A DNA stretch of 64,000 bases, taken from NCBI GenBank assembly GCA_964553245.1, contig CAZKJM010000001.1:296977-360976 (forward strand), given 5' to 3'. Position numbers and translations under genes: made by a program. Shown here piece by piece: positions 6,310-16,024 of this stretch (position 1 is the first letter of the stretch; each line of letters starts with the position of its first letter). Origin of the DNA: an uncultured Gammaproteobacteria bacterium. Lineage in GTDB: Bacteria > Patescibacteriota > Microgenomatia > Levybacterales > UBA12049. The notes under the pieces were generated by a model. It searched no databases. It was not told the DNA's origin and saw only the letters and a program-made list of their open reading frames with translations.

Positions 6310-6939
6310 TTAGGGATTCCAGCCTTCATAAGCATAATAATCTCCGTCTTGCCAAATACAAACATAAGGCGTGTCATCAAGCATATTCTTGGCATGCAAA
6401 CTGGAATTAATCCAATTATTTACAACTTCTTTGTAGTTAGAATTCATTGCTATGTTTTCCGTTATAACCTTATAGCTTGGATACGGAAGGGTTTGAGAAT
6501 TTATTCTTTGCGTAAATCCATCATGGTTAAAATTTTTAGAAATCTCTCCTGCTCTTATCTTAGCAAAGGAACAAGTTTCTGAATTACTTATTGCCGCCGA
6601 AAGCCCCTTTGATCTCCTGAATTCATTAACCATATCTAACAAATAGTTTTTAACATCTCTGTTTGTATTTTTAACAGCTTCGTCTTCTTTCATCTTTGCT
6701 TTGGGAATTAGTGTTGGAGTATTAGTTAAAGTCGGTTTTGTGGTTGAAATAGGCATATTTGTTGGAATTGAGGTTAAGACAGTAACGGTTGACACAGAAA
6801 CACTTTCCCCAAAAACAGTTTTTGTGGTTTTTTTAGAAATCTGCGCTTCGGATTTATAATTATAAAGCATCCATGAGGCAGAATAGATGGTTAGAAGCAC
6901 AGCGATAAAAAAGATCAACGACCCTGCCAATCGCCGCAT
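6310..6939 (-). CDS. Membrane-anchored CAP/SCP/PR-1 family protein (YkwD-like)
   Basis: 209 aa with an N-terminal TM helix and a Thr/Pro-rich linker. The C-terminal domain carries CAP motifs (NEFRR..., ITENIA, VVNNWINSSLHAKNML). Confidence 0.55.
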   Translation of the reverse strand: MRRLAGSLIFFIAVLLTIYSASWMLYNYKSEAQISKKTTKTVFGESVSVSTVTVLTSIPTNMPISTTKPTLTNTPTLIPKAKMKEDEAVKNTNRDVKNYLLDMVNEFRRSKGLSAAISNSETCSFAKIRAGEISKNFNHDGFTQRINSQTLPYPSYKVITENIAMNSNYKEVVNNWINSSLHAKNMLDDTPYVCIWQDGDYYAYEGWNP

Positions 6940-7233: not shown

Positions 7234-8667
7234 ATGAAAAAATTTTTTGTAATCATATTAGGAATATTCTGTTTTGGAGGAATAATTACTTCTGTATCCG
7301 CAGAGACAATAACGGATTTAACTATTACTCCAGTTTCATCGGTTTTTGATGCAAATAATGTGTCTTCCGTTAACGATTCTGCGCCTGGATTCGCTAGCGG
7401 TAGCTTCATGTCAAATGGCAATGGGAAAACTGATATGTACTTTACGCCAGTGGGTTTATTTGGACGAGAAATTACATTAGGAGAAATATCTAGTATTAGT
7501 TATTGGACTAAAACAAACTCTACTCACGCTATAGATCCACGAGATTGGTATTTAACAATTTACACAAAACCCTATTCTGGAGACATTTCTAGTGCATCAT
7601 GGTATGGCGATCGCATAGGTACTGAGCCGTATTTTTCAATTAATATAGTCGATCCAGCTAACACATGGAATCAGTGGTCTACTGACGGGACAAATAATAA
7701 GTTGCGCTTTTTTGAATCTACTGCAGGTGCACCTGGCGCAACCTTTGGAAGCTACACGGATCCAGAATGGTCTATGTTTAAAGCTGGGAATGCCCTATCG
7801 AGTGAACCTTATGCTACACATGGTATTCTATACTTTTCTGTACAAACGGGGAGTGCTTGGGCAACAGGCTTTACGGGTCAATTAGACGGCTTACAAATTG
7901 AGCTTACTGACGGATCGATTGCTAAGATTAATTTTGAAGCATATTCTGCCCCATCGGTGCCGGTAATAACAACCCCGGCAAATAACTCAATTGTAAATGT
8001 TTCTGATATGGTAAAAGTTGACTGGGATGACTCAATCGGCACATACCCGCCTTTTGAGTACCAATACGAAGCATATTCCAACGCAGATTATACAAATCTT
8101 TTGTATCAAAGCGCTTGGTTAACAGCATCAGAAATACCAACACCTGGAACACCACCGGGAGAATATTACATTCGCGTTAAAGCAAAAGACGGTATTGGAA
8201 CAGAAACAGAATGGAGCAATGAATCAGTAAATCCTTATAAAATTACCGTTGTCGATCCATATGCAATTCCTGCTGTTTGTAAAAATATTACCGGTCTTGG
8301 AGCACCGATAATCGGCACCAACAAAAGCGAAGTAATAAAAGGAACAAGTGGGAACGATTTAATTTTTGCTCTTGGCGGAAGCGATAAAATCGATGGAAAA
8401 AGTGGTAAGGATTGTATTATCGGAGGCGATGGAAGTGACGTGCTTATCGGAGGAGAAGGTAATGACGTACTTCTTGGAGGCAACGGAAGCGATAGTCTTG
8501 ATGGCGGAAATGGAAACGATAAGCTTTACGGTGAAATCGGAAGCGATTATTTAAAAGGAGGAAACGGAAATGACGCGCTTGATGGTGGAGATGGAAGTGA
8601 CTCTGCTGTTGGCGGAAATGGAACAGATACTTGCACAACAGAAGCTAATAAACAGTGCGAAGTATAA
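7234..8667 (+). CDS. Secreted protein with an FN3/Ig-like region and C-terminal RTX-type (hemolysin-type) calcium-binding nonapeptide repeats
   Basis: 477 aa with a signal peptide. The C-terminus carries GGxGxD repeats (GGSDKIDGKSGKDCIIGGDGSDVLIGGEGNDVLLGGNGSDSLDGGNGNDKLYG...). A strong RBS, GGAGGTG, lies 8 nt upstream. Confidence 0.7.
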   Translation: MKKFFVIILGIFCFGGIITSVSAETITDLTITPVSSVFDANNVSSVNDSAPGFASGSFMSNGNGKTDMYFTPVGLFGREITLGEISSISYWTKTNSTHAIDPRDWYLTIYTKPYSGDISSASWYGDRIGTEPYFSINIVDPANTWNQWSTDGTNNKLRFFESTAGAPGATFGSYTDPEWSMFKAGNALSSEPYATHGILYFSVQTGSAWATGFTGQLDGLQIELTDGSIAKINFEAYSAPSVPVITTPANNSIVNVSDMVKVDWDDSIGTYPPFEYQYEAYSNADYTNLLYQSAWLTASEIPTPGTPPGEYYIRVKAKDGIGTETEWSNESVNPYKITVVDPYAIPAVCKNITGLGAPIIGTNKSEVIKGTSGNDLIFALGGSDKIDGKSGKDCIIGGDGSDVLIGGEGNDVLLGGNGSDSLDGGNGNDKLYGEIGSDYLKGGNGNDALDGGDGSDSAVGGNGTDTCTTEANKQCEV

Positions 8668-8719
8668 AACGTTTAACGAATCGTAGATCGAAATACAATT
8701 TTGAAAGGAGGTGAAAAAA

Positions 8720-9349
8720 ATGAATATTAAAACAAAATTACTTACAGGAACAATAATGGCAGCATTTTTAACATTGGTGTTTGTACCAACGACGTTTGCT
8801 GCAAAAAAGGTAGTTGTCAAGAAAAATGGTGCCGGTTCAAAAAATACTGTTACAGCTGTTAAAGTAAACAAAACAAAAACTCAACAGCTTAATTTAACGG
8901 CAGTTGGTAATGTTGTAATCGGCTTGCAAAACACCGGTCTTAATTCCGCAGTCGGAAATACCGGAGACGGAGGAACAGATGTTAATTCCGGAGATACAAA
9001 ATCAACAGTTACCAATCGAACGACAACAGGAGGAAACGAAGCAACTGTAAATCCATGCGGTTGCGAAGTAACTCCTTGCGAATGCACAATGGAAAATTCT
9101 GTTGTAATCGCTAAAAACGGTGCTGGTTCAAAAAATGAAGTTACGGTTTATGACGTAAATAAAACTAAAGTTGAACAAGCTAATGCAACTATAGTTGTCA
9201 ATGCCGTAGTTGTAGCCCAAAACACCGGTCTTAATTCCGCAGTCGGAAATACCGGAGACGGAGAAGTTTCTGTTGATTCAGGTAACGCAGAATTAACAGC
9301 TACTAATAGTACAATAACCGGAGGAAATGTTTATAATCCTGGTATGTAA
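8720..9349 (+). CDS. Secreted Asn/Gly/Thr-rich repeat protein, paralog A (two ~90-aa modules separated by a Cys knot)
   Basis: The likely start is the ATG at 8720 with AGGAGGTG upstream; the ORF track begins at the GTG at 8711. It has a signal peptide, and the module NGAGSKN...QNTGLNSAVGNTGDG...TGGN occurs twice around CGCEVTPCEC. It shares its repeat with the genes at 10025, 11222 and 13527. Confidence 0.6.
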   Translation: MNIKTKLLTGTIMAAFLTLVFVPTTFAAKKVVVKKNGAGSKNTVTAVKVNKTKTQQLNLTAVGNVVIGLQNTGLNSAVGNTGDGGTDVNSGDTKSTVTNRTTTGGNEATVNPCGCEVTPCECTMENSVVIAKNGAGSKNEVTVYDVNKTKVEQANATIVVNAVVVAQNTGLNSAVGNTGDGEVSVDSGNAELTATNSTITGGNVYNPGM

Positions 9350-9379
9350 AAACATTAAGGATTATTACTAAAAGCCCTG

Positions 9380-9402
9380 CCCGAATAAAAGGCGGGGTTT
9401 TT
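9380..9402. terminator. Weak hairpin CCCG-N9-CGGG plus T-run between convergent genes
   Basis: GCCCTGCCCGaataaaaGGCGGGGTTTTT. The stem is short. Confidence 0.25.
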
Positions 9403-9404
9403 GG

Positions 9405-9956
9405 TTATTTAACAGGAGATGCAAAAACAAGAAGTCTTTGAAAAGCAGTGCCAATAGGTGTACAAGTTTGTAAAATCAGCTGGTCTTTATTTTCTTTAAT
9501 ATATTTAACTTCGTTTGGCCAAACAACTTTTTTATCTGTTACGTAATATTTATATTTTTTACCATCTTTTTCAATAAGAATTAAATCGTTTTTTTTAAGC
9601 TCATCTAGTCTTAAAAAAATCGTATTATATCGAGTTAAATTCCAAGGATAGTCGGTTGAATGACCGAATAAAAAAATTGTTCCTTTATCGCCAGGCAGAG
9701 CACTACCTTTAGCTTGAGCTATTCCCATAGTTAATGCTTTTCTATACTCTTTTTCGTTTGTCGCATCAACCCCTTTTATTATTGGGGAAACAAGTTTTAT
9801 CTTAGGAATTTCAATCGAAAAACCTGTGTTTAAAGCTACCTTGGAAGATAATAAATAAGACATTGCAACCGGATAATAAATAAATAAAAGAATAAGAAGA
9901 GACGTAATAATAAAAATGTTTCCAATTGTTTTTCTTAAAGTGCTTTTTCTTTTCAT
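9405..9956 (-). CDS. Sortase family transpeptidase
   Basis: 183 aa with an N-terminal TM anchor, the conserved His (LFGHS) and the catalytic motif LILQTCTP (TLxTC). It lies directly downstream of an LPATG-containing gene. Confidence 0.75.
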   Translation of the reverse strand: MKRKSTLRKTIGNIFIITSLLILLFIYYPVAMSYLLSSKVALNTGFSIEIPKIKLVSPIIKGVDATNEKEYRKALTMGIAQAKGSALPGDKGTIFLFGHSTDYPWNLTRYNTIFLRLDELKKNDLILIEKDGKKYKYYVTDKKVVWPNEVKYIKENKDQLILQTCTPIGTAFQRLLVFASPVK

Positions 9957-9997
9957 AGAGTTTTAAATTTTAGCAAAATGCCTCTTAATAAGCAAAA

Positions 9998-10020
9998 ACC
10001 GCGATTAACGCGGTTGTTTT
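9998..10020 (-). terminator. Intrinsic terminator hairpin AACCGCG-attaa-CGCGGTT flanked by A/T runs
   Basis: A perfect 7-bp stem with T-runs on both sides. It lies between the LPATG protein gene and the sortase gene. Confidence 0.45.
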
Positions 10021-10024
10021 AAAT

Positions 10025-11191
10025 TTATGCAGCTATTGGAGGAGACGATCCCGATGCCATTCGCAGAAAAACACCAATCGCAAATAATAATGTAGCAAGA
10101 ATTGTTGCTAAGAAAGCTAAATAGTTTCCGGTTGCCGGAAGCATTGCGCCAAGAACCGCTTGGCTTAAAGAACTACCTCCGTCGCTTCTACCATCACTTC
10201 TTCCGTCTGAAAGCCCGTCTCCTCCGCTACTTCCGCCGTTTCCGCCATTACCGGAAGGTGGATTAACCGGTGGGTTTACCGGTGGTGGAGGTGGTGGAGG
10301 TGGAGGAGGAGGAACTGAATCATCTTCGCAACTGTAGCTAGATCCATTTATTCCTTCGTTGTTTATATTTATAATACTGTCTATGTTTCCGGTTTTTATA
10401 AACACGTTACCATTATTGCTATTAGCAGAATTGTTTCCTGTATTTGGATCGCTAGCTACATTGTTTACAATTCTGGCGCTGTTTATACTTGAATAAATTA
10501 ACTCACTTAGGCAAGAAGCATAAATATTATTGATTGATCCTTCCCCATTTCCCGAAATTTTATATAAAAATTTTCCCGGATCAGTTATATTTTTTCCCGT
10601 ATTTTTATTAAAATTAATATCTTTATTTACAATATTAATTTCTTCTTTAATATTACCCGTATAAATATTAACATTACCGTTATTATTACTTGCTGAATTA
10701 TTACCGGTATTACTATGCGATTGAACATTATTAATAATTTCTGCTGTATTCGTTTGAGAGGTACTTACTACTGTTTGGCTGTTTATATTAATATTATTAG
10801 TGGAATTTACTCCGTTTCCTGTTATTACAGCTTCTCCGCTTCCGCAAGGATTTTGGCAACCACATCCACCGCATTCATTTTCCGATACGTTTATATTTAT
10901 ATTTTCATTCTGGATTTCTGACGTTGTTACAATATCACCTGTTGAAATATTTGTTTCCCCGGAGTTTGAATTCGCGCTGTTATCTCCGGTATTTGCTTCT
11001 TCGTTAACTTGATTATTAACTTCTGCGTTATTAGTTTGATTTATGGAATTATTACTTTCTACTGTTACATTAACTGTATTTTGAGAAGAATCACCATTCC
11101 CATCAATTACTATTACAGTTTCTGCCAAAACAGTTTTTGGCGAAACCATAATAAATAAAATCGATAATAATAAAATAAGTTTCTTCTTCAT
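10025..11191 (-). CDS. Cell-wall-anchored Asn/Gly/Thr-rich repeat protein, paralog B, with an LPATG sortase signal
   Basis: 388 aa with a signal peptide and a repeat module related to paralogs A, C and D. It has a Cys knot (ECGGCGCQNPCGSG), a poly-Pro tract (P12 VNPPVNPP) and a Gly/Ser-rich stalk. The C-terminus is LPATG followed by a hydrophobic segment and RMASG. Confidence 0.7.
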   Translation of the reverse strand: MKKKLILLLSILFIMVSPKTVLAETVIVIDGNGDSSQNTVNVTVESNNSINQTNNAEVNNQVNEEANTGDNSANSNSGETNISTGDIVTTSEIQNENININVSENECGGCGCQNPCGSGEAVITGNGVNSTNNININSQTVVSTSQTNTAEIINNVQSHSNTGNNSASNNNGNVNIYTGNIKEEINIVNKDINFNKNTGKNITDPGKFLYKISGNGEGSINNIYASCLSELIYSSINSARIVNNVASDPNTGNNSANSNNGNVFIKTGNIDSIININNEGINGSSYSCEDDSVPPPPPPPPPPPVNPPVNPPSGNGGNGGSSGGDGLSDGRSDGRSDGGSSLSQAVLGAMLPATGNYLAFLATILATLLFAIGVFLRMASGSSPPIAA

Positions 11192-11221
11192 ATTTTTAAA
11201 ACTTTTTAAGATTTAATATCT

Positions 11222-13414
11222 TTAAAGTTGGGGCAGTCTTTTAATTTTTTTACCCAGGAAAAGGAGCAGGGCTATTCCCGGAATTAATATAATTAACCAA
11301 GCTAAATTAATATTAACTGCTTTTACTTTTGCTTTTTCTCCTGTTAAATTTTTACCCAAAGTATCTTTTATATGATCCGATACACCCGCAACTAAAATAC
11401 TCGCAAAAGATCCGTTATTATTACTTGCTATAAAGACTTTTGATTCGGTTGGTTCGGCAACGTTTTCCGTTTGTTTGTTGTCACTATTTACCGAATCTGT
11501 ATCAATGCTTTCTAAAATTGTTTCCGAATTTGTTCCGCCTATTCCGGATGTATTATTTTGTTCTTGATTTACGCTTTCCGCTTGTGACTGATCAGCCAAA
11601 ACTGTTTTTTCTTTAGTTTGACCGGGAGCAACAAAATCTCCAAACCAGCTACCAAAAACATTAATCATTGTTACAACCAGTTTTCCGTTACCCACTATAT
11701 TGTTGTTTACAAAATTAACAATATTTGCGATTATTTTTGCATCTCCTGTAGTAATGTTTGAATTTCCTCCTGTATTAAAACTAGATGTATTATTTCCGGT
11801 ATTAGCCGACAAATTAAGCGTGTTATTTATATTTGCGTTGTTAGTTTGATTTATAGAATTATTTGTTGTTTGATTAGAATTTACCGTATTTGTAGAATCT
11901 GCTCCGTTTGTATTGTTCATTGCAGTTACTTCTCCGGTTATTGGATCAACTACAAATTCTGTTCCCGAAGATCCTGCAAGAGTTGAGCCGTCTGGCGAAC
12001 CAATTATTTTTCCAACCCATTTTCCTGCTTGATTTACTATTACCAACCACCAATTACCGCCGATTAAATTTGAGTTGGCAATATTCAAAACATTGGCCAT
12101 TACGCTTGCATCACCGGTATTAATCGAAGAGTCTCCTCCTGTATTAAAGTTTGTATCGTTATTTCCTGTTTGTGCATCTAAAACTAAAGTATTGGTTATA
12201 GATGCATCATTTGATTGAAATGTATTATCTGTATTTGTACTCGTAGCGCTTGCTGTGTTTGTAGAATTAGCACCATTCCCAGTATTGGAGGCTGTTGTTG
12301 AGCCGCCGCAACTTCCACCGCAAATTGCATTCATTGCTTCTTCGGTTAAAATAATATCTCCTACTAAATTACCGAAAATATTAACTACTCCGTAAATTAC
12401 GTTTCCCGCAAGATTATTATTGGCAAAAGTTAGTGAATTAGCCGAAACATTTGCATCTCCTGTAACTATATCTGAATCACCGCCGGTGTTAAAGCTTGCA
12501 TTATTACTTCCTGAATCCGCAGCAAGAATTAATTCATTTGATACTCCTGCATTGTTTGTTTGATTGGTATTATTATTAGTTGTATTACTGGCATCTGCTT
12601 GGTTATTAGACGATGCTCCGTTGTTTTCGTTAGAAGCAGTTACCGAAGAACCGGAACATCCATTAACACAGTTTTGACCAAAATCCAAAACAATATCACC
12701 AATATGATCATCTGCGATATTAAATTCTGCAACAGCCACTCCATCTACATTTGTATTCACAGATGTAATTACTGTCCCGGTTGTATTTGCATCTCCGGTT
12801 GTAATAGATGAATCACCAACATTATATGAAGCGCTGTTTTGTCCCGTAGCTGTTGCTTGATTTAAATTATTATTTACAGTTGCACTGTTTCCCTGATTTG
12901 TATTATTGTTATTTATTACCGAACCGGAAACATCATTTAAGGACCCTGCTCCGTTTCCGCTATTGGAAACCGAAATACTTCCACCTTCTTCTCCATTAGT
13001 TATTCCCAAATTTGAATTCCCAGTTGTTTGTAAGGTAGTATCGCTATTTGCATCTCCAGTGTTAATTGCTGTGTCTCCAACGCCACCATTGGAAGATGTC
13101 CCTTCTTGTTCTGTAGTATCCGCTGTTATTTCTGAAGGTACAGTTGGCGTTTCTGGTGCACTAGGCGCGGTTGGTGCAGATGGAGCCTCGGGAGCTTTAG
13201 GTGCTTCCGGAGCACTTGGTGCACTAGGCGCGGTTGGTGCAGATGGAGCCTCGGGAGCTTTAGGTGCTTCCGGAGCACTTGGTGCACTAGGCGCGGTTGG
13301 TGCAGATGGAGCCTCGGGAATATCCAATGCATATACCGGCATAATGCGGGTAAAAAGTATTGCCGTTAATAATAGTATTGTTAAATATTTTTTAATTATA
13401 TTTATCTTTTTCAT
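11222..13414 (-). CDS. Large secreted Asn/Gly/Thr-rich repeat protein, paralog C, with an N-terminal Pro/Ala-rich tandem repeat and a C-terminal TM anchor
   Basis: 730 aa. After the signal peptide come three PEAPSAPTAPSAPSAPEAPKA units. Repeat modules follow, separated by Cys motifs (QNCVNGCSGSS, NAICGGSCGGS). It ends with a hydrophobic helix plus KKIKR. Confidence 0.6.
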   Translation of the reverse strand: MKKINIIKKYLTILLLTAILFTRIMPVYALDIPEAPSAPTAPSAPSAPEAPKAPEAPSAPTAPSAPSAPEAPKAPEAPSAPTAPSAPETPTVPSEITADTTEQEGTSSNGGVGDTAINTGDANSDTTLQTTGNSNLGITNGEEGGSISVSNSGNGAGSLNDVSGSVINNNNTNQGNSATVNNNLNQATATGQNSASYNVGDSSITTGDANTTGTVITSVNTNVDGVAVAEFNIADDHIGDIVLDFGQNCVNGCSGSSVTASNENNGASSNNQADASNTTNNNTNQTNNAGVSNELILAADSGSNNASFNTGGDSDIVTGDANVSANSLTFANNNLAGNVIYGVVNIFGNLVGDIILTEEAMNAICGGSCGGSTTASNTGNGANSTNTASATSTNTDNTFQSNDASITNTLVLDAQTGNNDTNFNTGGDSSINTGDASVMANVLNIANSNLIGGNWWLVIVNQAGKWVGKIIGSPDGSTLAGSSGTEFVVDPITGEVTAMNNTNGADSTNTVNSNQTTNNSINQTNNANINNTLNLSANTGNNTSSFNTGGNSNITTGDAKIIANIVNFVNNNIVGNGKLVVTMINVFGSWFGDFVAPGQTKEKTVLADQSQAESVNQEQNNTSGIGGTNSETILESIDTDSVNSDNKQTENVAEPTESKVFIASNNNGSFASILVAGVSDHIKDTLGKNLTGEKAKVKAVNINLAWLIILIPGIALLLFLGKKIKRLPQL
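13141..13325. repeat. 63-bp tandem repeat (about 3 copies) encoding (PEAPSAPTAPSAPSAPEAPKA)n inside paralog C
   Basis: GGTGCACTAGGCGCGGTTGGTGCAGATGGAGCCTCGGGAGCTTTAGGTGCTTCCGGAGCACTT starts at 13155, 13218 and 13281. The first two copies are near-identical and the third is diverged. Confidence 0.7.
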
Positions 13415-13526
13415 TTTTATAGTTTATTTTCTGTTTCCTGTTTTCTAATTTCTATTTTATTTTTCTCTCGGGTACAGAGTGCTCTTGTTGAAGTGCTTTA
13501 CAAAAAGCACTCTGTAACCCTAAAGA

Positions 13527-14804
13527 TTAGGCTCCCATGTGTAAAAATGCCCAAAGTGCTGCAAAATTGACTGAAAAATTAACATCATAGTCAAAATCTG
13601 GCAATAAATCAGACAAATCTACCATTGGTAATTGCCCTATTACGTTCACGTTTCCGGAATTACTTACGTTTGTATCGATAAGTGCATCTCCGGTATTAAT
13701 TGCTGGATCCGATGGATCATCAACTTCTCCGGTACTAGAATATACATCGTTGTGACCGGTTTTTGCATCTAGATCCTTAAGCATATTTGTAAGGAAGGAC
13801 ATGTTTCCCTGTCCGAGAGTTTGTGAATTATTAAGAGTTAAATTAATAATATTATCCATATCCTTACCATCTTGGCAACCTTCTGCTCCGTTTCCAACAA
13901 TTTTTGCTAAAACAGACATTGCACATCCATTGCAATCAACATCTGCATAGTTAAAGTTGACTGAATTGTCAACATCTGCGTAAACTTTTGCATTACCAGT
14001 GCCGATCATTACATCGCCTCCGGTGTTAAATCCTGCATCGTTTCCGCCTGTTTTTGCATCTGCATCAACAGTATTTAAAACCATTGCAAAATTATCTTGA
14101 TCAAGTTTTGTGCCTTTAGTAAGTCCTGCAACGATAGAATTATCGCTTCCTGCTCCATTACCAGAAATGATAAAAGAAGCTGATGGATTTACTGGTCCAA
14201 CAACTGATCCAACTTTTGCAGAGTTAACATTTGCAGTTGTAGAAACATTGGTGTCCACTGTTGCATTACCAGTGCCGATCATTACATCGCCTCCGGTGTT
14301 TTTATATGCATCGTTTCCGCCTGTTTTTGCATCTGCATCAACCATGTTGGTAACCATTGCTTTATTGTCTTGAGTAACGGTTGTTGTTGTTTTTTCACCA
14401 AGTTGTACACCATTTTGACTACCTGCTCCGTTTTCGGAGATTTTTACGTCGGTTGAACCTGCTGAGCAACAATCAACTTCTGCTGCATTTCTGTTAAGAT
14501 CATTTGTTATGTCTGCTTTAACTGTTGCATCTCCTGTATGGATTCCAACATTACCTCCGGTGTTAAATCCTGCATCGTTTCCGCCTGTTTTTGCATCTGC
14601 ATCAACCATGTTGGTAACTATTGCATTATTATTTTGAGTAACGGTTGTTTTATTGGTTTGATTAACTGTTGTCCAGTTATCAGACCCTGCACCGTTTCCG
14701 GAAATAACTATTGTTGTTTCTGCGAACGCAACTGGGGCTAAAGCATTAATTAAAATTGCTGAAGTAGCAATTCCTGTTACTATTCTTCTTTTTAAATCTA
14801 TCAT
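13527..14804 (-). CDS. Secreted Asn/Gly/Thr-rich repeat protein, paralog D
   Basis: The real start is probably the ATG at 14804 (MIDLKRRIVTGIATSAILINALAPVAFA is a signal peptide, with a GGAGGTG RBS 6 nt upstream) rather than 14924. It has three ISGNGAGSDN...AKTGGNDAGFNTGG...TGDA modules separated by the Cys motifs CCSAGS and CNGC. Intragenic repeats of about 100 bp are near-identical. Confidence 0.6.
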   Translation of the reverse strand: MIDLKRRIVTGIATSAILINALAPVAFAETTIVISGNGAGSDNWTTVNQTNKTTVTQNNNAIVTNMVDADAKTGGNDAGFNTGGNVGIHTGDATVKADITNDLNRNAAEVDCCSAGSTDVKISENGAGSQNGVQLGEKTTTTVTQDNKAMVTNMVDADAKTGGNDAYKNTGGDVMIGTGNATVDTNVSTTANVNSAKVGSVVGPVNPSASFIISGNGAGSDNSIVAGLTKGTKLDQDNFAMVLNTVDADAKTGGNDAGFNTGGDVMIGTGNAKVYADVDNSVNFNYADVDCNGCAMSVLAKIVGNGAEGCQDGKDMDNIINLTLNNSQTLGQGNMSFLTNMLKDLDAKTGHNDVYSSTGEVDDPSDPAINTGDALIDTNVSNSGNVNVIGQLPMVDLSDLLPDFDYDVNFSVNFAALWAFLHMGA

Positions 14805-14889
14805 CTTATTCACCTCCTCTCTTTCGTAAATTTCTTTCAAATCTTGAAAGATTGCACTTCTTTCTTCCGCGCCTTGTTTCTGTCTGCCT

Positions 14890-14955
14890 AAGCTTAAAGA
14901 AACAAAAAACGGAGGCTCCTTCATCCAACCTAAGTTAGATGAAAAAGCCTCCGTT
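14890..14955 (-). terminator. Long-stem intrinsic terminator downstream of the DUF2292 gene
   Basis: AAACGGAGGCTCCTTCATC...GATGAAAAAGCCTCCGTTT is an imperfect stem of about 17 bp. On the minus strand it is followed by GTTTTTTGTTTCTTT. Confidence 0.5.
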
Positions 14956-15024
14956 TGCGGTCAGCTTGTTTAACTTACTTTAATATATATAGTATGGTCT
15001 ATATTTTGTCAATACCCTAAATAG

Positions 15025-15264
15025 CTAGTCTTTTCTGCCAAAATATGTTTGTGTAATTCTGTTTTGAATTGGGAATTGATTTTCTTCTTCGTTTTCTTCT
15101 CTGGAGTCCGGAATTTGAAGGTCTGTTTTTTTGATATTTCTAACTGTTATTTGGGTTATTTTTTTATTTTGCACGTAAACTTCTACACTACCGTAATCAA
15201 TATCTTCCAATGCATCTTGAATTTCTTTTATTAATTGGACCTTATCACCTAGTGAATAAGCCAT
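15025..15264 (-). CDS. DUF2292 (YezD-like) small protein
   Basis: 79 aa. DYGSVEVYVQNKKITQITVRNIKK matches the DUF2292 core (GSV.I.v.dGkv.qie..ek). Confidence 0.5.
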   Translation of the reverse strand: MAYSLGDKVQLIKEIQDALEDIDYGSVEVYVQNKKITQITVRNIKKTDLQIPDSREENEEENQFPIQNRITQTYFGRKD

Positions 15265-15265
15265 A

Positions 15266-16024
15266 TTATTTAAATTTTATATTAACTGTTTCCTTATCCC
15301 CTTCAATCTCACCGATCTGAAGTCTTAAATCCTTATCTGCTTCATTAATCGGAAACCCTAATCTAGTTATCTTTGTTGAGATTGCCTGTACTTCAACTGG
15401 ATCATTGTGAATATCTGCTGCTATCCATTCATTTTTATTATTAATCGAAAGTCTTATATAATCTCTAGTATTTACCTGAACGCCTTGAGAATTATCATTT
15501 ACTATTTTTATATTTAAAATAAGGAATACCCTTCCTTTTACCGCTGTTGCCCTTTGTCCTTTAACTATTATTGAATCCTGTAACTCTGCTGATACCACTT
15601 CATATTTTAATTCTCCCACTTTTTTTCCATTATCGTCTTTTAAGGCAAATTTAAAATTCTTGTCTAATTCCGTTTTTGCAAGTGTTTCCGCAGGAAGAGG
15701 TCTTGTGTCAACTGCGCTATTATTATTTTTACCTGAAGTATTTATAATATAAAAAATCAAAGAGATAACTACAATCGCTAATAACAGATAAAATAACTTT
15801 TTATATTTTCGATAATTATAATTTTTTAATCCTTCTCTTCCTCTTACAATTCTTTCTTTAACATCTATTTTTCTTACGGATCTTTTTGTTTTATGGAATA
15901 TTTTTCTTAAAAACTCTCTTATTTGATTTTTTTTATTTTCTACAGGTTTTTCTACATCTTGATTTAGAGATGTTTCTAAAGTTTCGTTATTCACTTCTAC
16001 TGAAGGTAAGTTTTCTTGTTCCAT
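15266..16024 (-). CDS. Single-pass membrane protein with a DUF4352-like extracytoplasmic domain
   Basis: 252 aa with a basic cytoplasmic N-terminus and a TM helix. The C-terminal domain (GRVFLILNIKIVNDNSQGVQVNTRDYIRLSIN) resembles DUF4352. Confidence 0.35.
   Translation of the reverse strand: MEQENLPSVEVNNETLETSLNQDVEKPVENKKNQIREFLRKIFHKTKRSVRKIDVKERIVRGREGLKNYNYRKYKKLFYLLLAIVVISLIFYIINTSGKNNNSAVDTRPLPAETLAKTELDKNFKFALKDDNGKKVGELKYEVVSAELQDSIIVKGQRATAVKGRVFLILNIKIVNDNSQGVQVNTRDYIRLSINNKNEWIAADIHNDPVEVQAISTKITRLGFPINEADKDLRLQIGEIEGDKETVNIKFK

Follow-up and report, generated by a model that had tools for sequence, protein, structure and literature searches.

What does a group of four neighbouring genes for secreted, repeat-rich proteins, lying beside a sortase gene, build on the surface of an uncultured bacterium? 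The genes, here named A to D, are found in a 64,000-nucleotide (nt) stretch of contig CAZKJM010000001.1, called the 64-kb window below. The organism belongs to the Candidate Phyla Radiation (CPR), with Candidatus Levybacteria as its nearest named relative. An initial annotation of this DNA had described them as a sortase-coupled island of paralogous surface proteins. What is new here is an uncatalogued domain family in a sortase-coupled surface-assembly operon that extends across a whole clade, the Microgenomates group of the CPR, together with an unusual messenger RNA (mRNA) architecture on the major gene of this operon, D. The five genes at the centre of the analysis are the following (aa, amino acids; TM, transmembrane).

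8711-9349, plus strand: gene A, 212 aa; signal peptide, two modules, linker CGCEVTPCEC, without anchor
10025-11191, minus strand: gene B, 388 aa; signal peptide, three modules, poly-Pro/Gly/Ser stalk, LPATG, TM helix, YLR-type tail
11222-13414, minus strand: gene C, 730 aa; signal peptide, modules, stalk, TM helix, KKIKR tail
13527-14804, minus strand: gene D, 425 aa; signal peptide, four modules, amphipathic C-terminal tail
9405-9956, minus strand: sortase, 183 aa; N-terminal TM anchor, His99, Cys165 (in ILQTC), Arg174

On direct reading of the sequence, A, B, C and D each begin with a plausible Sec signal peptide. The start codon of A is either GTG 8711 or ATG 8720. The reading frame of D is open upstream as far as 14924, and its start was placed at 14804 because the orthologs measure 400-430 aa and the extra stretch is that of a conserved leader hairpin, described below.

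The repeat module, its operon and the sortase

The four proteins contain 13 full modules of ~82 aa each, two in A, three in B, four plus one partial in C and four in D, which recur with a period of 88-97 aa in D, B and A and of about 112-123 aa in C. Over aligned internal segments, the other modules are 34-59% identical to the first module of D (D1), and the residues N9, G10, S13, N15, N31, N37, G46, N48, N53, G56 and G63 are invariant; the consensus given for the repeat in the initial annotation is essentially the one found here. A profile built from D1-D3 recovers D4 and all modules of A, B and C (domain E 3e-5 to 1e-13) and has no match in any other open reading frame (ORF) of the window, which comprises 305 ORF segments. 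This specificity argues for paralogy rather than a composition artefact, and the description of four neighbouring genes with a shared repeat holds, each ORF being present where it had been placed.

The repeat had further been said to belong to no named domain, and this was borne out. A-D have zero Pfam-A matches at E up to 1 and nothing meaningful in NCBIfam, where all matches lie far below cut-off (A to holo-ACP synthase, the Pro-rich N-terminus of C to the IgA-binding protein BAC), and the module profile has zero matches among the PDB sequences at E up to 10. The RTX beta-roll (PF00353) is likewise unmatched by A-D and, in the tested set, is matched only by the neighbouring gene at 7234-8667. 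An exhaustive profile search of 1.84 billion representatives found the module in 3,039 protein clusters, these ~3,000 being clusters at 50% identity. At E up to 1e-3, the homologs of D number more than 700, each of them titled 'hypothetical protein' and constant in length at 400-430 aa; those of C number more than 550. The module thus appears to define a sizeable uncatalogued domain family.

Variants with five modules (D-like), with seven modules (1046 aa) and with 9-10 modules also occur in this family, the seven-module form being a possible C-B fusion; variant members include P0131 (926 aa), P0132 (1183 aa), P0067 and P0074 (about 500 aa) and the product of L034 9311-12451. These larger proteins match no known domain, whether in Pfam or as an attached ligand-binding or catalytic domain, and neither they nor A-D show an SLH, CWB2 or other recognisable wall-binding domain in Pfam or NCBIfam.

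How widely is the gene cluster itself distributed? A scan of one genome per species with the D alignment yielded a set of 80 loci. The well-titled ones all come from CPR bacteria of the Microgenomates group (Levy-, Roizman-, Ames-, Gottesman-, Woese-, Davies- and Curtissbacteria), and one cluster-bearing record is titled Nealsonbacteria; the 82 loci with D span at least seven Microgenomates candidate phyla. The gene order, looked up in three contigs and determined by script for all loci, is near-invariant and kept in about 80 of them: a 252-aa TM protein, a DUF2292 protein, D with four modules, C with four, B with three and an LPxTG signal, and the sortase. A, with two modules, is convergent to the D-C-B-sortase run and is often preceded by an RTX-repeat gene. 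The DUF2292 gene is syntenic in almost all loci, and it and the gene for the 252-aa membrane protein precede D in nearly every one. Among the 82 loci, C is found in 71, a B-like gene in 59 and the sortase in 55, many of the loci lacking C, B or sortase being cut by contig ends. The set of anchored and free paralogs with a sortase of its own, which had been recognised in the initial annotation, is therefore conserved across loci. The term 'island', with its connotation of mobile or accessory DNA, has to be given up, as the cluster is a core operon, vertically conserved in every Microgenomates lineage sampled.

Numerous cluster-bearing metagenome-assembled genomes (L006, L010-L015, L018-L019, L021 and many others) are titled 'uncultured Gammaproteobacteria bacterium' and stem from binchicken/SRP co-assemblies. 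Since the cluster was otherwise encountered only in Microgenomates-group records, these titles look like placeholders or mislabels.

B is the sole LPxTG protein in the 64-kb window. Its sorting signal consists of LPATG at aa 351-355 (nt 10127-10141) followed by a hydrophobic stretch of 22 aa, and in 43 long-form orthologous sequences L[PA]xTG precedes a TM helix and a tail with the conserved motif YLR[FL]xSGxSPP; in L073 and L079 the signal reads LAA[AT]G. Of the ending proposed earlier for B, the LPATG and the hydrophobic helix stand, and 'basic tail' is an imprecise term for a C-terminal tail whose only Arg is the one within the YLR[FL]xSGxSPP motif.

The sortase, encoded directly downstream of B, matches PF04203 with 89.6 bits (cut-off 26.6; E 1.7e-25) and TIGR01076 with 63.5 bits (cut-off 39.35). 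It remains below every NCBIfam class cut-off, the best score being that for class C (72.5 bits vs 160), with classes D, E and F below as well. His99, Cys165 and Arg174 are kept in 55-56 of 56 sequences, namely the window's sortase and 55 orthologs. The catalytic motif is of the TLxTC type announced in the initial annotation, yet it reads ILQTC in the window itself and [IT]LQTC across orthologs. By these signatures, the enzyme is classed as a Pfam-type sortase with an intact His-Cys-Arg triad and B as its predicted substrate, and the sortase and the sorting signal of B seem to be ordinary members of their families. The observations that could have spoken against the annotated system did not materialise: the repeat maps to no known domain family, and the LPxTG signal and the catalytic Cys, His and Arg persist in orthologs.

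A short B with one module (about 190-236 aa), or a B without LPxTG, is seen in Gottesman-, Ames- and some Woesebacteria. In these loci, where B was taken as the gene after C (L023, L030, L032, L035, L037, L038, L044, L049 and L068), the protein ends in (V/M)(L/M)GLSxT[AS]G, a TM helix and a basic tail, and the neighbouring sortase is longer (207-293 aa) in most of them. The (V/M)(L/M)GLSxT[AS]G motif of these B proteins may be a variant sorting signal.

RNA signals around gene D

D alone among A-D is flanked by a promoter, a leader hairpin, an extended Shine-Dalgarno (SD) sequence, a 3' stem-loop and a covarying 5'-3' pairing. In the order of transcription, these features are (bp, base pairs; UTR, untranslated region):

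14984-15012, minus strand: promoter-like boxes, TTGACA (15012-15007), 17 nt, TATATA (14989-14984)
14900-14953, minus strand: leader hairpin, 20 bp and a U-run, with the conserved 5' flank GCUGACCGCAAACGGAGGCUUUU
14854-14860, minus strand: 5'UTR site GAAGUGC, at -56 from the D ATG, exact complement of the 3' loop
14811-14820, minus strand: extended SD sequence AGAGGAGGUG, 10 nt, conserved, ahead of the D ATG
13464-13522, minus strand: 3' stem-loop, a few nt past the D stop, with the loop GCACUUC and no U-run

The intergenic region between D and C, about 105 nt long, contains a very stable hairpin in 67 of 68 loci (median -29 kcal/mol, z -6.7), and the same comparison found no hairpin in the C-B gap of about 37 nt. 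The hairpin begins 0-3 nt past the D stop in most loci and is conserved in its stems, GUAGGGUG/CACCCUAC, and in its loop GCACUUC, which is at least 90% invariant; 11 of 11 RNAalifold pairs show compensatory changes. A covariance model of the element finds one match per locus, always right behind D, and no match elsewhere in 1.2 Mb of loci; in the 64-kb window it gives a single match at 13522-13464 (28.5 bits, E 1.5e-6). A generic terminator was considered and rejected, given the lack of a U-run and the occurrence after D only. Classic intercistronic stabiliser hairpins offer a further comparison. Rfam yielded no match at the RNA elements of D, its only returns being two sub-threshold miRNA chance matches inside B (10209-10314).

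The loop of this hairpin has a complement in the 5'UTR of D, at a distance of 1.3 kb. Of 56 loci, 40 have an exact 7/7 complement of the loop in the 160 nt ahead of the D start, usually between -45 and -90, and about ten further loci carry it with a single G·U, against a chance background of 0.03 per 500 nt. Where the loop deviates, the upstream site changes with it, as in the pairs ACACUUC/GAAGUGU (L001, L005 and L028), GCACUCU/AGAGUGC (L051), GCACCUC/GAGGUGC (L060) and GCACCUU/AAGGUGC (L078). In a pairing test for which the 5' sites were picked independently of loop identity, 98.3% of cells pair, compared with at most 48% for slid controls, and the 8 double-change cells are reached in 0 of 500 shuffles. 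This covariation indicates a long-range pairing of the D 5'UTR with the 3' loop, which would constitute a rare, covariation-supported bacterial case of pairing between distant mRNA ends.

Upstream of D, the -35 box TATTGACAA is conserved in 12 of 14 aligned loci and is joined by a -10 box of TATA type, and the leader also holds a variable hairpin. The conserved leader hairpin is a candidate attenuator, 5' stabiliser or terminator of the upstream genes. Taken together, the RNA features of D resemble the equipment of an mRNA segment that is both long-lived and very highly expressed. The hbs mRNA of B. subtilis (Braun et al. 2017, PMC5737220), from a highly expressed gene, resembles D in having a strong SD sequence, a structured 5'UTR and 5'/3'-UTR base-pairing. 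In D, unlike in hbs, a conserved intercistronic hairpin supplies the 3' partner through its loop, and the 7-bp pairing is conserved with covariation in lineages from several candidate phyla.

Architecture, fold and a proposed assembly

What could such a set of proteins assemble into? In C, the signal peptide is followed by a Pro-rich, disordered N-terminal region of about 75 aa (25-104 in the AlphaFold2 (AF2) model), one partial and four full modules, each then followed by a conserved hydrophobic hairpin insert, and a disordered stalk of about 100 aa (602-700 in the model) ahead of the TM helix at 704-725. Its C-terminus comprises a conserved INLAW motif, the TM helix and the KKIKR tail, of which the latter two had been correctly annotated. 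In C orthologs, (I/T)INLAW is near-invariant at the start of the TM helix and is followed by a Lys/Arg cluster (C aa 700-730; 11222-11330, minus strand); this tripartite layout is reminiscent of processed sorting signals and has no known cognate enzyme.

The signal peptide of D has its predicted cleavage site after AFA at aa 28, and the modules of D occupy about aa 29-110, 117-198, 208-289 and 297-390. They are followed by a conserved C-terminus of a P-rich segment and an amphipathic helix, FNFAALWAFFGM, or DLSDLLDLL in divergent lineages. This tail was rejected as a TM anchor, being too polar and short and having an acidic amphipathic version in divergent orthologs; it is probably a docking element or cap. 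A and D, suggested earlier to be released, both come without an anchor, but D, keeping its conserved amphipathic tail, is not simply released. The mature forms of B, C and D are acidic, with a pI of about 4 and net charges of -22, -44 and -30, respectively, and A is near-neutral (median ortholog pI 7.8). An acidic pI is common among surface-layer proteins.

Across orthologs, Cys is found nearly only in particular inter-module linkers, as close pairs (CC, CxC, CxxC or CxxxC). In D, these occupy the linkers between modules 1 and 2 and between modules 3 and 4, never that between 2 and 3, the window's D having CC in the former and CxxC in the latter. C has its pairs in linker 1-2 (CxxxC in 68 of 71) and linker 2-3. 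A and B have theirs in linker 1-2; the remaining Cys of B (about 2.7 per protein) lie outside linkers, with pairs directly behind module 3 in two orthologs. All Cys strings quoted in the initial annotation are present, and the 4-Cys clusters of the window's A and B are lineage-specific. The 'Cys-knot' itself is not supported, because two Cys per linker are too few: a cystine knot needs six Cys in three interlocked disulfides, whereas most orthologs hold one Cys pair per linker, and this pair is the conserved feature. The linker pairs are plausible local disulfides or small metal sites at the step between layers. CPR genomes do encode MdbA-like oxidoreductases and VKOR (PMC6744442).

We see about an even chance that the operon builds a surface layer or fibres in which D is the abundant subunit, held by a wall-linked B and a membrane-anchored C. 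From the features above we infer the surface-layer or adhesin function proposed for A-D in the initial annotation and, beyond it, the wall linkage of B, the abundance of D, stacking and co-assembly. In this scenario, the sortase would cleave B between the Thr and Gly of LPATG and link it to peptidoglycan, so that its uncapped three-module stack projects past the wall on the Pro/Gly stalk. C would display an uncapped module stack from the membrane via its C-terminal helix and the stalk of ~100 aa; it is the disordered stalks of B and C that suggest this anchor geometry. D would be the bulk secreted subunit, made in large excess, with the intercistronic stem-loop and the 5'-3' pairing stabilising its mRNA segment relative to those of C, B and the sortase gene. 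D is cast as the abundant subunit because of the post-D hairpin, the leader hairpin, the -35 box, the 10-nt SD sequence and the 5'-3' pairing. It would dock on B and C by homotypic module-module contacts and then polymerise, its beta layers with their Asn ladders stacking edge to edge in the way of beta-solenoids and functional amyloids. The linker Cys pairs, as disulfides or metal sites, would lock the step between layers, and A, being short, uncapped and near-neutral, may be a minor, cap or adaptor subunit with the RTX partner. Periodic surface layers, and the lack of an outer membrane, are reported for CPR cells (He et al., bioRxiv 10.1101/2020.05.14.094862).

Alternatively, A-D could be independent adhesins or binding proteins, for example for the host of an episymbiont or for glycans, which share the repeat, differ in their tethers and do not co-assemble. 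This we regard as unlikely: copy number, protein length and gene order are rigid in all sampled lineages, unlike in fast-evolving adhesin repertoires, and the family comes without any attached ligand-binding or catalytic domain. The module stacks are moreover uncapped at their N-terminal edge, and the expression signals of D resemble those of bulk structural proteins.

The assembly set out above relies on a stack of modules, for which evidence comes from two independent sources. AF2, run on D with 42 orthologs, gave a model with a mean pLDDT of 76.5 and a pTM of 0.66, in which each module opens with a short strand and the GNGAGS turn, continues with a strand of 31 residues and ends, after TG-rich turns, in one of 18 residues. 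Mean-field direct coupling analysis (DCA) of 1,767 distinct modules from the collected proteins and loci gave top couplings in clean antidiagonals, pairing 27-50 with 58-81 (turn at NTGG) and 2-7 with 15-20 (turn at GNGAGS), with further contacts between the GNGAGS turn and 52-58 and among N9, Q29 and N78. This pairing agrees with the AF2 strand layout. The turns lie 44 residues apart, half the module period, a spacing compatible both with a flattened solenoid, whose rungs of ~88 residues are stacked in register, and with a regular antiparallel meander. A stack is favoured by the strand faces, of which one varies and the other keeps N/Q/V/A at alternate positions, and by the recurrence of invariant Asn at equivalent module positions. 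The best available structural evidence points to a beta-solenoid-like stack, as had been suggested from the repeat.

Several observations weigh against this reading. The five AF2 models of D disagree, with pLDDT falling from 76 to 44, so that confidence is only moderate, and the model of C is poor (pLDDT 54), with the same strand pattern visible. Foldseek searches against PDB and BFVD gave no significant or global match (TM at most 0.2), the best match being FapC (E 2.4e-3), and the geometry of the stack is therefore uncertain. In the DCA of full-length D, the in-register couplings of modules 1-3 and 2-4 are as strong as those of neighbours, separations of 179 and 188 residues matching those of 88 and 91 in strength. 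Non-adjacent modules thus covary equally, which speaks for concerted evolution and is no proof of parallel stacking; it suggests that the D repeats are under concerted evolution or gene conversion. Outside the fold, the leader hairpin, which carries a U-run, might act as a terminator of D transcription instead of a stabiliser of the mRNA, and the proposed assembly does not account for what A, the DUF2292 protein, the 252-aa membrane protein or the D tail do.

The DCA pattern fits a flat antiparallel meander equally well. In this competing picture, the module is a flat or twisted ribbon of very long hairpins and the AF2 solenoid an artefact of the repeats; the proteins could still serve the same purpose at the surface, with a different principle of assembly such as sheet dimerisation. 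The antidiagonals (i+j about 108 and about 22), with their 44-residue turn spacing, are exactly those a regular meander gives, and the very low TM-scores to real beta-helices and the disagreement among the AF2 models are in line with it. However, long strands with a conserved small, hydrophobic or Asn face opposite a variable polar one need a two-layer core, and the invariant Asn at equivalent module positions suit ladders, making the meander, in our view, quite unlikely.

D might be taken one step further, as the S-layer or sheath protein of Microgenomates, a cross-beta, amyloid-like polymer with giant rungs of ~88 residues, nucleated on B and C and with its supply set by an mRNA whose ends are joined by a kissing contact between the hairpin loop and the 5'UTR. 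This is possible but doubtful. If true, anchored surface systems of functional amyloid would have arisen independently a fourth time, here in all sampled lineages of a major CPR clade.

A covalent, sortase-polymerised pilus of the Gram-positive type, with D, C, B and A as pilins, is highly improbable and largely refuted: several secreted paralogs do adjoin the sortase, whose best NCBIfam class is indeed class C, but its 72.5 bits fall far short of the cut-off of 160, B alone has a sorting signal, C ends in a plain TM anchor, no CnaA/CnaB or pilin match was found in Pfam, and the predicted fold is solenoid-like, not Ig-like.

Related surface systems and the wider setting

The nearest functional analogues appear to be the chaplins and the curli/Fap systems, with A-D belonging to neither by sequence. 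In the chaplins of Streptomyces, the long ChpA-C carry a sortase signal and are anchored to the wall, and the short, secreted ChpD-H assemble on them into a surface layer. Like A-D, the chaplins are paralogs of one small beta-forming domain, with anchored multi-domain and anchor-less secreted forms in a monoderm envelope. However, A-D have no Pfam match to the chaplin domain (PF03777), which is roughly 40 aa long and hydrophobic, in contrast to the Asn/Gly/Thr-rich, acidic module of ~82 aa in the window; they include an additional, TM-anchored paralog, C, and a dedicated sortase inside the operon, and an amyloid nature is for them conjectural. Curli and Fap have a major subunit and a tethered nucleator, the roles proposed here for D and for B and C; their own layers are strand-turn-strand units rich in Q/N/G/A. 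Membership in the curli family was rejected, as hhalign of the module with E. coli CsgA gave a probability of 0.3%, and A-D have no Curlin_rpt (PF07012) match in Pfam at E up to 1. In contrast to curli, a layer would measure about 88 residues rather than about 22, and anchoring would proceed by sortase and TM helix, with no outer membrane or CsgG-type secretion.

With the LPXTG proteins and housekeeping-type sortases of Gram-positive bacteria, the window shares the tripartite signal of B and a sortase with the Pfam domain, a membrane anchor and the His/Cys/Arg triad. It departs from them in a sortase under all NCBIfam class cut-offs, in a B tail of the YLR[FL]xSGxSPP type instead of a Lys/Arg cluster, and in the GLSxT[AS]G that stands in place of LPxTG in some lineages.

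The following features adjoin or interrupt the operon:

6310-6939, minus strand: CAP (cysteine-rich secretory protein) domain protein, secreted or membrane-anchored, adjoining the cluster
7234-8667, plus strand: secreted RTX protein with C-terminal RTX Ca-binding repeats (PF00353)
9997-10015, both strands (palindromic): GC-rich hairpin, 7 bp, weak U-run, between B and the sortase gene
15025-15264, minus strand: DUF2292 (YezD-like) cytoplasmic protein, 79 aa, without signal peptide; PF10055, E 3.6e-8
15266-16024, minus strand: membrane protein, 252 aa, single-pass, with a beta-rich C-terminal ectodomain; heads the conserved cluster

The hairpin at 9997-10015 may provide a further step-down of sortase expression. 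The 252-aa membrane protein has no Pfam match. Gene A is co-directional with the RTX gene and lies 43 nt downstream of it, and an RTX gene is found upstream of A in at least 8 other loci (among them L001, L016, L019, L040, L044, L052 and L056). As this pair recurs, A is probably in a second, convergent transcription unit. The TM protein, the DUF2292 protein, the RTX partner of A and the RNA signals at D go beyond what the initial annotation had described. In a related Levybacteria locus (L001 16165-19113), the cluster is followed by genes for RTX and LTD-domain proteins, a SipW-like signal peptidase (SGSMEPT motif) and a Peptidase_M73 protein of the camelysin family, a putative second surface-fibre module that is absent from the window.

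What does the cluster mean for these organisms? Much of bacterial diversity is accounted for by the CPR, whose members are ultra-small, mostly uncultured and thought to live attached to other cells. A sortase family has been called 'near ubiquitous in Microgenomates', in a study that lists 35 Microgenomates-enriched families, mostly hypothetical, and does not describe the substrates of the sortase (Méheust 2019, PMC6744442). The proteins that build the CPR envelope are named in neither that study nor bioRxiv 10.1101/2020.05.14.094862, and our literature searches on CPR and Microgenomates sortase substrates and on DUF2292 found no account of the cluster. For the whole clade, the operon characterized here supplies concrete candidates: D as the probable major surface protein, B and C as its proposed anchors, and the sortase as the enzyme that would fix one of these. 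If the structural prediction holds, the beta architecture of the module would be unusual, and if the proposed assembly is true, it would give the near-universal sortase of Microgenomates its reason.

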